Shown here in pieces: positions 46,964 to 52,879 of a stretch of 64,000 nt of DNA (within the stretch, counting starts at the first letter, position 1; every line of letters starts with the position of its first letter). Both the position numbers and the translations under genes were made by a program. The notes beneath the pieces are model-generated. The model was not told where the DNA came from. It did no database searches and saw only the letters and a program-made list of their open reading frames with translations. The stretch comes from Patellaria atrata CBS 101060 (lineage: Eukaryota): assembly GCA_010093705.1 (NCBI GenBank), contig MU006092.1:1010350-1074349 (forward strand). The letters are read 5' to 3'.

Positions 46964-48406
46964 ATGAGCACACGATCGATCGGTAATCGGATCCAGACAA
47001 CCAGACAAGCAAATGCAGCTCATAAAAAATGCGGGCCGGTCCTGAGCGAAAAAGAGAGACGCAAGCTCGACCGAGAGATAGAACTCCATGAACGTGCTGA
47101 GCAGATTAAAGCTCGTGAACAAAGGAAGAAGATAAACGCAAAGCGAAAGATAGAGAGGGAGCAGAAGGAGAACAATGCACGACAACAACTAGGGATCGGG
47201 GTGGCCACCCAGTTGGCAGGGTTTAGCCATACACAAAAGAAGTTGAAGACAGGTATGGAGGCATTTTTGCGCACGGGGAAGCTCTCTGCTAGGCGATATC
47301 GGTTTGAAGTTTCTAAAGTCCCGAAGGAGACTTTGAAAACTCTGGAGGATGAGCCTGGGGATAGTCATGAGCTGGATGACGAGCTTCTGCGTGGACTTGA
47401 TGAAGTTGTGCAGATATCACCAAAGGGGAAATCGAAGGATCCCTGGGACGATAACTTACTAGACGATGAAACACTACTGCAATCACTAGTAGAGTCAGGG
47501 TCAGAAATAAATCTAAATCCGCAGTCGCGGAGTGATAATCATATATTGGCCGTCGGACCCAAGGACGATCGTTCACAGCATAGGGATCCTGACGAGGATC
47601 TAGGTGAAAATAAATTCTCGCAAACCTTTTCCCATTCGACTTCGAGAGTAGGTAAGATACACGCACTATGTGAGGCCAATATACCCATAACTAGAGAGGC
47701 TCATGGTGGCGATGAATCAGCCTTGAAGGCAAAAATGCTCTCTCCCTCGATCATCGAGACGTTTGTGGAGCTTTGGGAGAGTGATTCTGAAATCGAGCGA
47801 GACCTCTCACAACATCAAGTTGGACATAGGGAGCTGTCGCCTAAGGCTCCCGAAGTATCGATAGATGCTCCCGTCAAAATCCTGAATGCTACCATACCTG
47901 ATCCTGTTTTTATGGCAGCTGGGTTCTGCTGGGATGCTTTTCTGGAAAGCAATACGCAGATATCCCGCGATCTCAATGACAACTCTCCATGCTCCAAATC
48001 ACCTAAAAAGCAACCAAAGGTCCCGTTGTTTATGGAGCCCACGTCTAATCGGCCAAGTAAGACTGAAAAAGCACCCAGGTGTGACAGCCGAAGCAGAAAC
48101 TCTATCCCTTCCAAACGTTTGAATACTTCAAGGACAGACTTTGTTACGGCATCGACCATGCATATGCCTCCTCCTCGACTCCTTCCAAAACAAACGTCCC
48201 TCCCCGGATCAGAGGCGAACAAGACTTTTAGCCTCACCAACCTGGGAATTTTCACACAGGATCTCCAAGACATTGTCAACGAAGACTTTCCCTTTACTCA
48301 AGGGAACGAAGCAAATAAAATTGACAATGACTTTCCCAGCATTTCCACGCAAGACATGGAGGAGCTTGCTAACGTCAATGTATCCTTCTCCAGCGAAAAT
48401 GGATGA
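46964..48406 (+). CDS. Hypothetical 480-aa protein: N-terminal basic coiled coil, long disordered acidic region with TQ motifs
   Basis: Uninterrupted 1443-bp ORF with ATG. No domain recognised. Confidence 0.75.
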   Translation: MSTRSIGNRIQTTRQANAAHKKCGPVLSEKERRKLDREIELHERAEQIKAREQRKKINAKRKIEREQKENNARQQLGIGVATQLAGFSHTQKKLKTGMEAFLRTGKLSARRYRFEVSKVPKETLKTLEDEPGDSHELDDELLRGLDEVVQISPKGKSKDPWDDNLLDDETLLQSLVESGSEINLNPQSRSDNHILAVGPKDDRSQHRDPDEDLGENKFSQTFSHSTSRVGKIHALCEANIPITREAHGGDESALKAKMLSPSIIETFVELWESDSEIERDLSQHQVGHRELSPKAPEVSIDAPVKILNATIPDPVFMAAGFCWDAFLESNTQISRDLNDNSPCSKSPKKQPKVPLFMEPTSNRPSKTEKAPRCDSRSRNSIPSKRLNTSRTDFVTASTMHMPPPRLLPKQTSLPGSEANKTFSLTNLGIFTQDLQDIVNEDFPFTQGNEANKIDNDFPSISTQDMEELANVNVSFSSENG

Positions 48407-49028
48407 ATCTGTATTGGAAACGGACAGTGTTTAACCCATTAAAAAAAGGGGTTCGATTAGCTCTATGTCGAAGCTTCGCGGAGCATCCATCCCTTAGAGC
48501 GATGTCTCCACGACTATCGGCAAGCGAATTAGTATACCTGGAAGATGTGCATAATTGATAATCTTCGTGGACTCGTCAGAATTGATTCGTATAACAATGG
48601 AAGTCCTGCTTGATCCGAGAAGGTTTTTGAAGCTCGTTAGACAGGGCATGGAAAGTTTCTGAGCAGATCATAGCAACGGCAGGAGTCAGGAGTAAATACG
48701 TGCTTATAGTCTAGATAGCATTGTTTTCCGTTACATGACTGTACTGTGCTAAAAGATAAATATACACTGCGAATTAATCATTATTGTGCAGTGTAATTCA
48801 GTTCTCAAGTAATGGAAAGAAGACATGTCTTGAAGGTGATGTTATAGGGTACCTTCGGTACTTTTGGTACCGTACTTCTGTACGTTGCAGATGCTGTCTG
48901 TGCTGCCAAGATATTCTGCCGAATCGGCCCACAACACATTTCGAGAACTTCAACCTCAAGTAACGAACTCCTCATCCACAGCCTCAGACACTCTATCCCC
49001 AAAGTCATAACCATATTCCGACGTCAAC

Positions 49029-49375
49029 ATGGAGAACGAACGCGGTGAACTCGTCGATCTGTAAGTCGCATCAACTCAGCTCGTGGGAGGTTGTGAACTT
49101 CTGCTCAAACGAATTTCGAGTTTGCGGCTAACAACTAGTTTTACAGTTATGTCCCTCGCAAATGCAGCGCGACCAACCGTATCATCAAGGCTAAGGACCA
49201 TGCTTCAGTACAAATCTCAATCGGTAAGGTTGATGATAATGGACGCTATATCGGAGAGAACCAGACCTATGCTCTATCTGGTTTCGTCAGGGCGATGGGC
49301 GAGTCGGACGACAGCTTGAATAGACTAGCACAGAGAGACGGTTTCCTGAAGAACGTCTGGAGTGCAAGCCGATAA
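49029..49375 (+). CDS. RPS21: 40S ribosomal protein S21 (eS21); intron 49061-49146
   Basis: [34 protein letters not shown]...[15 protein letters not shown]. Confidence 0.97.
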
Positions 49376-49744
49376 ATGTGTCGGTATTCGGGCATGAGTA
49401 CGTATATGGATTCCCTAGCATACGCTACACCGAATATTTAGGGGCTGATTGCAGAAGCAGGCATTTGACTATGGCGTACTATGACTTCACGGCTTCGATG
49501 GGAGGTGGAATAAGGGCTGTAGTGTCTACGATAGATGGAATTGGGTGCAAGATTCTATAAACTAGAAACAGTCCATGAGCAATATCTCATCATGTGCTCG
49601 CCCGTACCATTTCATAGTTAAGCTTGCACGTGATCTACCCGACCACGCCGACGTGGAGCCGAAGCTCTTTAAATATTCATCCTCTTCCTCTTACTTATAT
49701 CTAACCTTGAATATCAGCAAGTTTTTGTTCCTCCTAATAACGCT

Positions 49745-49980
49745 GCTTCGGCCGATCAAGGCTCGCCCATTCGCACTTCGGTGAACTCAATGATTGGGCG
49801 AGCAGAGTTAATACGGTCCGTAGAACAAGTTTGTCGTCCTAGAACCGCTTCCTGCGGGTGGCTGGAGCTAGAGCCGGAACCTCACTCTGTCAGGCGTGAG
49901 CGTTCCGGTAGACAGCGATCACCTTCAGAAGTCCCGAGCAGTTAAGTCTTTGCCGGGTTACAGATACGGGTGTCACATAT
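49745..49980 (+). ncRNA. Predicted box H/ACA sno/scaRNA (~235 nt) with an inserted internal domain
   Basis: Layout is hairpin 49749-49820, H box AGAACA (49822-49827), internal hairpins, hairpin 49917-49974, then ACA (49975-49977) plus 3 nt. Both pockets have plausible antisense targets. Confidence 0.75.
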
Positions 49981-52879
49981 CATTCTTCTTCGACTTTCGG
50001 ATGTGCAATCCTCAGAATTGGATTTCGCACCGACGCCTTCTATTGTATTTGTCCCGTGTAGCTGCCTCGATGATTCCCTTTCCCTAAGAATGTTGTGGTA
50101 AGTAGAGATGTATGGGATTTGCAACTCCCCTTAGAAGTTCTTGCTATACGAGTGCGTCCACGTTTTGAATATAATAGTTAGCACAATTTTTCCTATACAT
50201 GCGTTTAACTATCATGTGGATCAATACCGAAGACTTACCCATCGTGCGCGAAATAGACTCGATAAAATTGAAACCATGCGGCAGACCGGATCAATGAGGG
50301 CATATGAGACTCTAAATTACCTTAACTTACGGCAGACCAATTTCTCTTCTCACAAAGCCATAAATACACATAATATTACTAGAAGAAGGCTGTTGGATCA
50401 TGGCGACTCCGAAATTAGTTTACTGAGCTTATAGATGGCATAAGGCTCTTGGAGATTACGTCTTCAAGCGCAGGAACTACATCCATCTCACTATACGTTT
50501 ATCACTAATCAATCTTATCCTTATACGTACCACTCACTATAGGTATATACAATAGTTTCTATACCTAATCTCACAAAACATTTCGAATCTTCCTTCGCCT
50601 CTGTGATCTCCGCAAGCATAGAATCTAATTGACTGCATCATTGAATCTCATTTCTTCACTTAGAATAACGCAATCTCTTTGAATTCAAGTCATGTTATTT
50701 TGTTTTTCGCACGGAAAGGGTTCATCCGGGGATTCAGGTTTCCATTTTAGGACACGCCAGGGCAGATGTATCATATCGAGAACCGCAGTTCCTGAAAGTG
50801 TTAAAGCACCTTTTGCATTGCGCAAACAAGTCTGCATAAGTGTTCCATATCATATTGCTTGATACATTAGAAACTAATCACCCCAGGTTTCTCCCTGAAT
50901 AATGGAGAGCATGTCATACGGTAGTGAGACGGTTTCTCTCGAGGTCAGGGTTCTAAACATGTCGCAAAAGCTGGGTTATGCCAGCCCTATGGTGGGCTGA
51001 TGTTCTCTGGGGCTTATTTCCAGCGCAGAACAGATGATGATATCATCAAACGGTGGGTTTTGCGGTGAAGCTTAAGACGTTACATATGGCATTAGGTTCA
51101 AGGGGTAGTTAAGGTTGAGTATAGTGACTAAGCAACGTCGAGCACGAACCACGACCGTACGAGAGATGTCGGGAAGATGTTGACGGCACTTCCAAGGATG
51201 ATATGCACTTAACCTAGAAAAGAGTAGTGACGAAACCGAAAGTGCGCATGGCAGCAGCAAGCCCGCACGACAACAGGCACAATAAGGTAAAAGCTGTCAC
51301 AAAAGGAGCCTATTAGGACTTCAATAATTCATCGCCAATCGACTTTTCCGTCGGTCGAGTTTATTGCTATGACCTTCTAGGGAAGATGGCGGGAACGGCG
51401 CGGGTTCTCCCTCCTCCGCTTTTAACCTTCCCCAGCAGTCACTCTCCCCCAGCCTCCAAAGTTTGCTTTTTACTCGAGTTAACGAGTTTCCAGGTTACAA
51501 TTTACAATTTATCATTGTTACGTTCACCATAGGTTCCAATCTCTAAGAGGCGGGGTAGCATATCCAGCCGGAGGGAGTACAATTCTGGTTCACTAAGGTA
51601 ATACTGTAGTTCTACCTTCCCGGTCTACACAGCCTGTACACGACTTTATACAAAGCATGGGTTGCATTTCTTGTATATTGCGGCAGTCCCCTTGATGGCT
51701 TGGGCGACCCCACGAGAAAGAATGACGGGTACGATGCCCGTATGGGAGGTTTATGTACCAATGGAAGCGAGAAACGGGGCGAGACTAGATCAATAAGCTT
51801 CGAAGCGGGATCGGATTTTTATGTATTGCTTGCATGAGCTTAGGTTGAGGAGTTATGAGGAAACAACAGCATCTTCAACTCTTTACCACTTAACTACCTT
51901 ACCTACTCCTCGGCCTAAGGTACCTAGAACTTGCCGTCGCCCAGCTCACAATCCAGTTACAGCGCGTGACAGGTTAGTATCTCGACCTTGTCTAACCTTG
52001 CTGCATTTCCCCACCTATTAGGCCTGGTTATGGCGTTATATTCCCCCCGACATAAGCTCCCGTCTGCTTCTATCTGTTGCTGCCACCCGACTGCCACACA
52101 CTTACACTTACACCCACACCCACACACACACCCATCCACCCACACGAAAGAGGCTGGAAGGGACACGGTTCGACAAGCTTCTCGGGGATGTATGAGAAAG
52201 AGAAAGCAGACATTTGACACTTTATGAAAGAGGAGGCTAGGAGGGATTGTCCATCGTTGCTAGGCATTCTTTTCTGGGGACCAGTTAAGGTAAGTGGACC
52301 TGGAAGTAGTACCTGAAGGTGAGTGAATGATTCGAAGTGGCGCTAATTCCCAGCTACCCCGCTTCTTTAGAAAACCTTACCTTACTTACTTTACTGGTAG
52401 TCCAGGTACTTGTACAATACTTGTACAAGATCCATCATATCCTTCATACCAAGTTTACACCACGACTTAGGTACTGATACTCATCTTCGACGATCATTCT
52501 TGCGTCTTCCAAGGCGTAGACAAGCTTGCAAACTGTGTACTGGTCCTCCCCCCCCCCCCCGGGCTTGCTCTACTATGGATCTTTCCAGCCTCCCACCTTT
52601 TTTGATGTAAGAGCCCGTTCTCGTTACCCTTGCAGACTTGTGATCTCCATATGCACCAGTTCGTCCATCTACCTACTTCAATATCATGACCATGAACCCA
52701 AGTTGAAACCTTTGATCATTTCGACCATCTGGTCCTCTCGAATAGAAGGAACGCGCAGAAAGTGAATTTCAGTGCTGTCCAAAAGGCATGAGAGCTATTT
52801 GACATTCACCTCTCAGTCATACCGCCCAGCGCGTGCCCAAGGACGCCAGAGTTACGACCCCTCAGTACCAGGCGATACA

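Follow-up and report, generated by a model that had tools for sequence, protein, structure and literature searches.

The pseudouridines (Ψ) adjoining the branch-site recognition sequence of U2 small nuclear RNA (snRNA) count among the best-conserved modifications of RNA, and the reported routes to them differ, with Pus1 alone acting in budding yeast and Pus1 together with a guide RNA acting in fission yeast and vertebrates (PMC5473140). In Saccharomyces cerevisiae, Ψ44 of U2 is produced by Pus1, a protein-only enzyme (PMC5473140). The Schizosaccharomyces pombe guide for U2 Ψ43/44 was located by a BLAST search with ggACAGATACgg, the matches being screened for an upstream TGAAAA and a downstream ACA. 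It lies downstream of RPC10 and was confirmed by rapid amplification of cDNA ends and by northern blotting (PMC5473140). Redundancy between Pus1 and the guide is on record for both S. pombe and mouse. Placed in S. cerevisiae, this guide yields Ψ45 on U2 and, in a pus1-delta strain, Ψ44 as well, and the same report calls the U2-Ψ43/44 pocket strand conserved across species in SCARNA8/U92 (PMC5473140). Knock-out of human SCARNA8 abolishes both Ψ43 and Ψ44 of U2, and re-expression restores both (PMC8763049). Described here is a locus in a stretch of 64,000 nucleotides (nt) from Patellaria atrata CBS 101060 (contig MU006092.1, positions 1,010,350 to 1,074,349), referred to throughout as the window. 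Its positions 49749–49980 on the + strand, downstream of the ribosomal protein gene RPS21, probably encode a box H/ACA guide RNA of ~232 nt whose 3' pocket is directed at U2 near the branch-site region.

For the filamentous ascomycetes, no U2 pseudouridylation guide was encountered in the literature searched, which did not extend to the supplementary files of Canzler 2018 or of Gao 2021, where this RNA may be listed. The survey of Neurospora crassa assigned no predicted pseudouridines to snRNAs, and six of its H/ACA RNAs remained orphans. In the supplement of that survey, whose line-broken text could hide matches, the pocket 8-mer occurs solely in the unrelated hinge of Nc ACA13, and the motif was not found in the Trichophyton rubrum supplements. 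A literature search under the designations of the S. pombe guide returned no paper on a filamentous fungus, and the portion of the fungal snoRNAome paper that was consulted names no U2 guide from Pezizomycotina.

The layout of the element, with positions counted from the first nucleotide of the window, is as follows.

49749–49980, + strand: predicted H/ACA RNA of ~232 nt, made up, in order, of 5' hairpin, H box, insert-bearing hinge, 3' hairpin, and ACA plus 3 nt
49749–49820, + strand: 5' hairpin, as read from the sequence (5'-hairpin model match, 49747–49827)
49749–49754 and 49814–49820, + strand: 5' lower stem, CGGCCG with CGGTCCG, one bulged T
49755–49760 and 49804–49813, + strand: the two 5' pocket strands (internal loop), ATCAAG and AGAGTTAATA
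49761–49769 and 49795–49803, + strand: 5' upper stem, GCTCGCCCA with TGGGCGAGC
+ strand: apex of the 5' hairpin, a CAC-TTCG-GTG mini-hairpin
49822–49827, + strand: H box AGAACA, 1 nt past the 5' hairpin
49828–49916, + strand: lineage-specific hinge insert, from the fold and the gap between model matches
49874–49885 and 49896–49908, + strand: strong hairpin inside the insert, CCGGAACCTCAC with GTGAGCGTTCCGG, from the fold
49917–49974, + strand: 3' hairpin with the predicted pseudouridylation pocket, from the model and covariation
49917–49924 and 49968–49974, + strand: 3' lower stem, GATCACCT with GGGTGTC, a bulged T being required
49925–49932, + strand: 3' pocket, 5' strand, TCAGAAGT
49933–49957, + strand: 3' upper stem, CCCG (49933–49936) with CGGG (49954–49957), extended in the fold by GCAG/TTGC
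49958–49959, + strand: two extra T ahead of the 3' pocket strand
49960–49967, + strand: 3' pocket, 3' strand, ACAGATAC (TT+ACAGATAC, 49958–49967)
49975–49977, + strand: ACA box, followed by TAT to 49980, the predicted mature 3' end

A first-pass annotation of this DNA, prepared from the letters of the window, had proposed these boxes and stems, and each of them was found by sequence reading at the position claimed. Its two 3' stems are present in a somewhat different form: the lower stem pairs only if a T is bulged, and the upper stem is longer than the CCCG/CGGG originally proposed. The distance of the pocket strand from the ACA box was likewise given correctly. Indeed, from the start of ACAGATAC to ACA there are 15 nt, and the same spacing is maintained across the family described below. 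The ACA box directly abuts the 3' lower stem. Positions 49960–49969 read ACAGATACGG, and the site can also be written as ttACAGATACgg followed by seven nucleotides of any kind and then ACA.

Taken from the window by itself, the evidence for an RNA is weak. The 8-mer ACAGATAC occurs four times in the window against 1.49 expected, and 6 of 100 shuffled sequences reach that count. The folding energy of the element corresponds to a z-score of -3.07 on the + strand and -3.11 on the - strand, and since these values are nearly equal the choice of strand is not given by folding.

The argument thus turns on relatives of the locus. These were metagenomic contigs picked solely by similarity of the RPS21 protein, with exon 2 as the query, and not by the RNA. 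From 471 pattern-matched stretches, 263 were found to encode relatives, and the best 80 of these (85–93% identity) were used. The contigs carry no label as to Pezizomycotina origin, which is presumed here. All homolog counts given below are counts of sequences rather than of independent events, and the effective number is 9.5–11. The element is present on the RPS21 strand in 57 of the 80 loci, with ACAGATAC located 386–880 nt past the end of the RPS21 match. In a 58th locus, L059, the start of the 5' hairpin is visible, and the end of the contig cuts off the rest. A covariance model of the 3' hairpin that included the window sequence matched the 57 loci and the window; across the 334,866 nt covered, both strands included, nothing else scored at E ≤ 1. 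Because that model contained the window, it was rebuilt from the 43 other distinct sequences. With the rebuilt model, R3, the sole match in the 64 kb, both strands considered, is at 49910–49981 on the + strand, with a score of 26.0 bits and an E-value of 1.1e-05. The corresponding model of the 5' hairpin, R2, built from 14 other sequences, places a weak match at 49747–49827 (16.3 bits, E 0.06–0.095). The 23 loci lacking a match comprise 12 with ≤322 nt past RPS21, six with 584–942 nt, and five with at least 1957 nt. The first 12, one of which is L059, have no room for the 3' hairpin.

The conservation of the stems was examined separately for the two hairpins. For the 3' hairpin, a plain MAFFT alignment (A2) of 44 distinct sequences was combined with 15 hand-written pairs. 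In this alignment 88.3% of the cells are paired, as compared to 35.9–46.2% when the partner is slid by one to three columns. Thirteen of the 15 pairs vary on both sides, and none of 500 shuffles reaches any of the five measures applied. U-G pairs are frequent, with 20 and 36 sequences, for example, showing them at two of the pairs; on the opposite strand these would read A-C, which places the RNA on the + strand. Three pairs above the pocket (A2 columns 29/57) there is a conserved non-pair, with G opposite G in 28 of the 44 sequences and G opposite A in 4 of the 44. For the 5' hairpin, RNAalifold returned no structure from a MAFFT alignment (A3), because clades of differing stem length were out of register. 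A3 was replaced by a covariance alignment, A6, based on the model from the 14-sequence clade, which matched 21 distinct loci at E ≤ 0.15. In A6, 97.2% of the cells are paired versus 32–50% when slid, and 5 of the 13 pairs vary on both sides; the alignment was fitted to the 5'-hairpin model and leans towards the assumed structure.

The boxes are retained as well. An ANA is found 1–2 nt past the 5' hairpin in all 38 aligned homologs, and of the 44 distinct homologs, 41 have ACA as the box after the 3' hairpin, two have ATA, and one has AAA. The hairpin-hinge-hairpin-tail architecture of an H/ACA RNA is thus borne out by evolution, and covarying stems in combination with invariant loop strands are the signature of a guide RNA. 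A quite different explanation would be that there is no RNA gene here, the element being a structured part of the RPS21 3' untranslated region or terminator, or else a chance structure. The constant location on the RPS21 strand close behind the gene would suit such an explanation, as would the similar folding z-scores of the two strands. The ANA and ACA boxes in 38 of 38 and 41 of 44 sequences, the covariation of the stems around invariant loop strands, and the preservation of the element itself while its distance from RPS21 ranges over 386–880 nt make it extremely improbable. On these comparative grounds, the predicted box H/ACA RNA is regarded as genuine and conserved, and as a new member of a family already known. 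The first-pass annotation had called a box H/ACA RNA at this place, and had suggested aligning the region downstream of RPS21 for covariation; both the call and the suggestion are borne out by the covarying stems, the boxes, and the 57 of 80 contigs that carry the element. The strand on which it invariably lies would allow for its co-transcription with RPS21, as an alternative to the stand-alone guide proposed in the first-pass annotation.

The target assigned to the 3' pocket rests on both of its strands. Pairing was evaluated against nucleotides 31–55 of S. cerevisiae U2 as printed in PMC4712673. The invariant pocket strand, ACAGAUACGG, is the very strand used by Deryusheva & Gall (2017) to locate the S. 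pombe U2-Ψ43/44 guide. As the RNA sequence ACAGAUAC, it pairs with G37–U44 of yeast U2 over 8 base pairs (bp) in 44 of 44 sequences, a count that is so by selection. In the family the 3' side reads GCACAGATACGG and the opposite loop strand CTGAAGAG. The family 5' strand, CUGAAGAG, forms 8 contiguous bp with U2 C46–G53, one or two of them G-U, in 31 of the 44 sequences, and 10 bp in five of the 44. Both pocket strands fit the U2 geometry, with at least 7 bp on the 5' side, in 40 of the 44 distinct sequences. If the closing G-C of the upper stem is kept, U45 and C46 are left unpaired as the canonical 5'-UN-3', 15 nt from ACA. If the closing G were to pair with C46 instead, the result may be an alternative register for the neighboring uridine. 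The U2 motif itself was absent from all 80 RPS21 loci by sequence search. The earlier suggestion that the 3' pocket is aimed at U2 near yeast U44/U45 is thus supported by the published U2-Ψ43/44 signature strand (PMC5473140) and by the pairing of the 5' strand.

On the basis of the characterized relatives, the RNA, once expressed, would be expected to assemble with Cbf5, Nop10, Nhp2, and Gar1. The internal loop of its 3' hairpin would then pair with the part of U2 snRNA that directly follows the branch-site recognition sequence, with the 3' strand ACAGAUAC lying on G37–U44 (S. cerevisiae numbering) and the 5' strand pairing from C46/U47 on. The first unpaired uridine would be U45, which corresponds to U44 in S. 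pombe and vertebrates, and the neighboring U44 could serve as a second target through an alternative register, as for SCARNA8 and pugU2-43/44. By this analogy the RNA most likely directs the formation of a U2 pseudouridine adjoining the branch-site region.

It might be argued that the H/ACA RNA is real but that its 3' pocket guides the modification of ribosomal RNA or of another snRNA sharing GUAUCUGU, with U2 not being a substrate. The 8-mer alone is indeed not specific, as its four occurrences in the window against 1.49 expected demonstrate. Both pocket strands fit U2 in 40 of the 44 distinct sequences, however, with at least 7 bp on the 5' side. The same pocket strand belongs to verified U2 guides in S. 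pombe, Xenopus, mouse, and human (reported in PMC5473140 and PMC8763049), and SCARNA8 is the sole Rfam family that aligns with the RNA. A target other than U2 is accordingly considered very unlikely. In one relative, L005 (3360–3433), the 5' pocket strand is TGATGAG, as in the vertebrate SCARNA8 consensus, and it forms 3 bp with a yeast-type U2. Lineage-specific 5' strands of this kind (CAGAAGU in the window, UGAUGAG in L005) may track changes in U2 stem IIa, which would represent guide-target co-evolution.

A number of observations weigh against the assignment of the window element as a U2 guide, and they concern both the family and the individual copy. Eleven loci with at least 584 nt downstream of RPS21 carry no RNA; a model search of these with speed filters disabled gave scores of at most 7.2 bits and no copy with a variant motif. 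Since five of the eleven extend for at least 1957 nt, the linkage to RPS21 is common rather than universal. The invariance of ACAGAUAC is partly built in, given that the homologs were first chosen by the 8-mer. A full ANANNA H box is found in 16 of 38 homologs, most of the others having AGANNGA. Pairing was scored solely against S. cerevisiae U2, from which the U2 of this organism may differ. The Rfam search at gathering score gave no match in the window, and the homologs reach only ~25 bits versus the required 53; a search of 49500–50200 at E ≤ 10 did not find SCARNA8. Finally, the two public runs that match this stretch are contigs, probably of DNA, which span 47500–52000 without differences.

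The copy in the window is also the most divergent member of the family. Its score is the lowest of the 58 model matches, at 42.9 bits when the window sequence is part of the model and 26.0 bits when it is left out. The 5' strand of its 3' pocket reads CAGAAGU where the family has CUGAAGA, a change at two positions, and it forms 5 contiguous bp with U2 C46–U50, or 4 bp with U48–C51 in the other register, as compared to 8 bp in 31 of the 44 sequences. The first-pass annotation had described this second strand as pairing weakly, which is correct for the window copy. Between ACAGAUAC and the upper stem there are two additional U. In its terminal loop (49940–49949), the 3' hairpin contains UAAG, whereas 30 of the 44 distinct sequences have nGAG (A2 columns 36–41). 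The H box is separated from the 5' upper stem by 18 nt rather than the canonical 14–16, and the hinge carries an insert of ~82–89 nt. The 5'- and 3'-hairpin model matches lie 82 nt apart in the window, 131 nt apart in L057, and 0–4 nt apart in the other 19 sequences, so that an insert this large is found in 2 of the 21 sequences with both model matches. The inserted domain noted in the first-pass annotation is therefore real, and it is specific to a lineage. A typical homolog measures ~153–165 nt from the stem to ACA plus 3 nt (L032, 1196–1358, for example), and the 82 nt between model matches account for the 232 nt of the window copy.

These features raise the question of whether the family is a genuine U2 guide while the window copy is decaying or has been retargeted, such that it would be non-functional, conditional, or directed at another substrate. 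The low score, the shortened 5' pairing, the altered loop, the rare insert, and the two extra U beside a weakened 5' pocket strand all point in that direction. On the other hand, all of the stems of both hairpins are intact through compensating sequence, the H box (AGAACA) and the ACA box are canonical, and ACAGAUAC is unaltered at 15 nt from ACA. The copy is, in addition, the only one in the window and lies at the syntenic place, and the altered 5' strand could be matched by corresponding changes in stem IIa of this organism's U2. According to De Zoysa et al. 2018, a guide needs a minimum of 8 bp in total, which the two sides need not share evenly; the pocket accommodates as many as four unpaired nucleotides, and the 5'-most unpaired U is modified (PMC6049503). 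With 8 + 4–5 bp and its additional unpaired nucleotides, the window copy lies above that minimum and within those rules, and thus it should still guide U45 (yeast numbering). Loss or change of function in the window copy is for these reasons considered unlikely, and a working U2 guide is the preferred interpretation.

Two hits in the survey fall outside the RNA. In L020, a locus with no RNA downstream of RPS21, ACAGATACGG occurs upstream of the gene (1802–1811) with neither a correctly spaced ACA nor a model match, and its occurrence there is probably due to chance. A near-perfect hairpin of ~100 nt in L002 (1272–1371) gives sub-threshold mir-9080 matches in both orientations (53.9 and 50.4 bits, threshold 100). 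It looks like an inverted-repeat element unrelated to the H/ACA RNA.

The 5' pocket is maintained in part, with its strands kept in the homologs as TC[AG]A[AG] (26 of 38) and NAGA (28 of 38). U35 of U2 was considered as a target and rejected, since by inspection against the yeast U2 text of PMC4712673 its flanks find no complement in the strands ATCAAG and AGAGTTAATA. The sequence AGAGTTAA (49804–49811) can form 8 bp, one of them G-U, with an N. crassa 26S fragment, UUGACUCU, taken from a paper supplement, and the CAAG of the opposite 5' pocket strand (49755–49760) can pair with the UUUG that follows this fragment. In the canonical register, however, the match leaves AG rather than UN unpaired, and it is lost in the homologs; it is therefore treated as probably fortuitous. 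On the 5' side of this internal loop, six relatives (L044, L045, L046, L049, L051, and L054) read TACTAC, which is perfectly complementary to GUAGUA, the branch-site recognition sequence of U2; most relatives have TTCGAA or TTCAAA there. The TACTAC strand of this sub-clade may reflect chance or a lineage-specific second contact with U2.

The neighboring gene is organized as follows.

49029–49375, + strand: RPS21 gene, with exon 1 at 49029–49060, an intron at 49061–49146, and exon 2 at 49147–49375 including the TAA stop

As read from the sequence, the intron displays a GTAAGT 5' splice site, a CTAAC branch site, and an AG acceptor, and exon 2 matches the Pfam family Ribosomal_S21e with an E-value of 9.3e-35. 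The element starts ~370 bases past RPS21, and its ACAGATAC motif lies ~588 nt past the gene. Nothing longer than short open reading frames of 50–97 amino acids overlaps this intergenic stretch. Upstream of the RNA, the window contains CACGTG at 49627–49632 (~118 nt away) and TTTAAATA at 49668–49675 (~77 nt away). Among 47 sequences inspected over the 220 nt upstream of the RNA, 10 contain CACGTG and 11 a TATA-like word. The carriers of CACGTG are the window and nine homologs, mostly from one clade, against a background of ~0.05 per 225 nt. A promoter belonging to the RNA itself was considered, and both words are too infrequent to claim one. The fixed tandem with RPS21 may couple expression of the guide to ribosome synthesis.

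The finding would supply the missing U2 guide for filamentous fungi, and a widespread one, given its presence at 57 of the 80 RPS21 loci. The practical gain is a locator, namely the region downstream of RPS21, together with models for annotation. It also becomes testable whether these fungi modify the equivalent of yeast U45 and which route they use. What is gained is annotation inside a known family, with no new mechanism.

The family was compared with Rfam by running 20 homologous loci (38.9 kb) against 4227 families, and SCARNA8 (RF00286) alone touches the RNA, below threshold. The scores are 25.5 bits for L068 (E 0.53) and 24.7 bits for L011 (E 0.83), compared to a gathering score of 53, and in the alignments the lower stem, both pocket strands, the loop, and the ACA are in register. 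The search of 49500–50200 at E ≤ 10 left the + strand empty; a minus-strand match to ceN65 was rejected as due to chance.

With vertebrate SCARNA8 (U92, pugU2-34/44; RF00286) and with Drosophila scaRNA:PsiU2-35.45, the RNA shares the ACAGAUAC pocket strand and the spacing to ACA. The 5' strands, UUGAUGA in the Rfam SCARNA8 consensus and CUGAAGA in the fungal family, have a G-U pair at the same place. In the Infernal alignment the fungal nGAG, mostly TAGAG or TTGAG, falls on UUGAG of the SCARNA8 consensus, which is the position of the Cajal-body (CAB) box. The two differ in that the 5' pocket of SCARNA8 guides U2 Ψ34, a site that the 5' pocket strands of the window RNA do not fit by inspection against yeast U2, and in that human SCARNA8 is intronic (PMC8763049) whereas the window RNA is intergenic. 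The alignment of the entire 3' hairpin to the SCARNA8 model, including a loop GAG at the place of the CAB box (nGAG in 30 of 44), leads to the suggestion that the RNA did not arise by convergence but is a true ortholog of animal SCARNA8, inherited from the ancestor that fungi share with animals. We regard this suggestion as tentative and on balance doubtful. If it were correct, filamentous fungi would possess a CAB-like sorting signal, and their U2 pseudouridine at 44/45 would be RNA-guided.

Two other fungal RNAs merit comparison. The snR81 of S. cerevisiae is also a box H/ACA RNA that acts on the U2 branch-site region (Ψ42 and the inducible Ψ93), but it differs from the window RNA in its target uridine, U42, and in its guide sequences, and the Rfam snR81 model matched neither the window nor the 20 homologous loci. 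The 'H/ACA snoRNA 3' of Gao, Jones & Rivas 2021, identified by covariation, is intergenic in Pezizomycotina, with a mean length of 161 nt in 181 genomes (PMC8216456), and the homologs described here are 153–165 nt long. Its first hairpin was assigned to Aspergillus fumigatus SSU-203 in that report. Compared by description only, it is a candidate for the same RNA, although the description fits poorly.

The closest likeness is to S. pombe pugU2-43/44 (SPNCRNA.1709, BK009173), which guides U2 Ψ43 and Ψ44 (44 and 45 in yeast numbering). In both RNAs the 3'-terminal pocket has ACAGAUACgg or its counterpart on the 3' side with an ACA downstream (PMC5473140 for the S. pombe RNA), and each closely follows, in the same orientation, a gene for a housekeeping protein, which is RPC10 in S. 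pombe and RPS21 in the window. The likeness rests on the pocket strands, the box, and the locus. On the 5' side of the pocket, the S. pombe RNA has UGAAAA and the RPS21-linked family UGAAGA. The window copy has UU in place of gg/GC before ACAGAUAC, and it further departs from pugU2-43/44 in its weaker 5' strand and its 82-nt hinge insert. By its defining pocket the window RNA would be grouped with the U2-Ψ43/44 guides, despite scores that fall short of the Rfam cut-off, and it would lack the second function of the animal RNAs. Rather than a new kind of RNA, it represents in filamentous fungi the counterpart of pugU2-43/44 from S. pombe and of SCARNA8 from animals.

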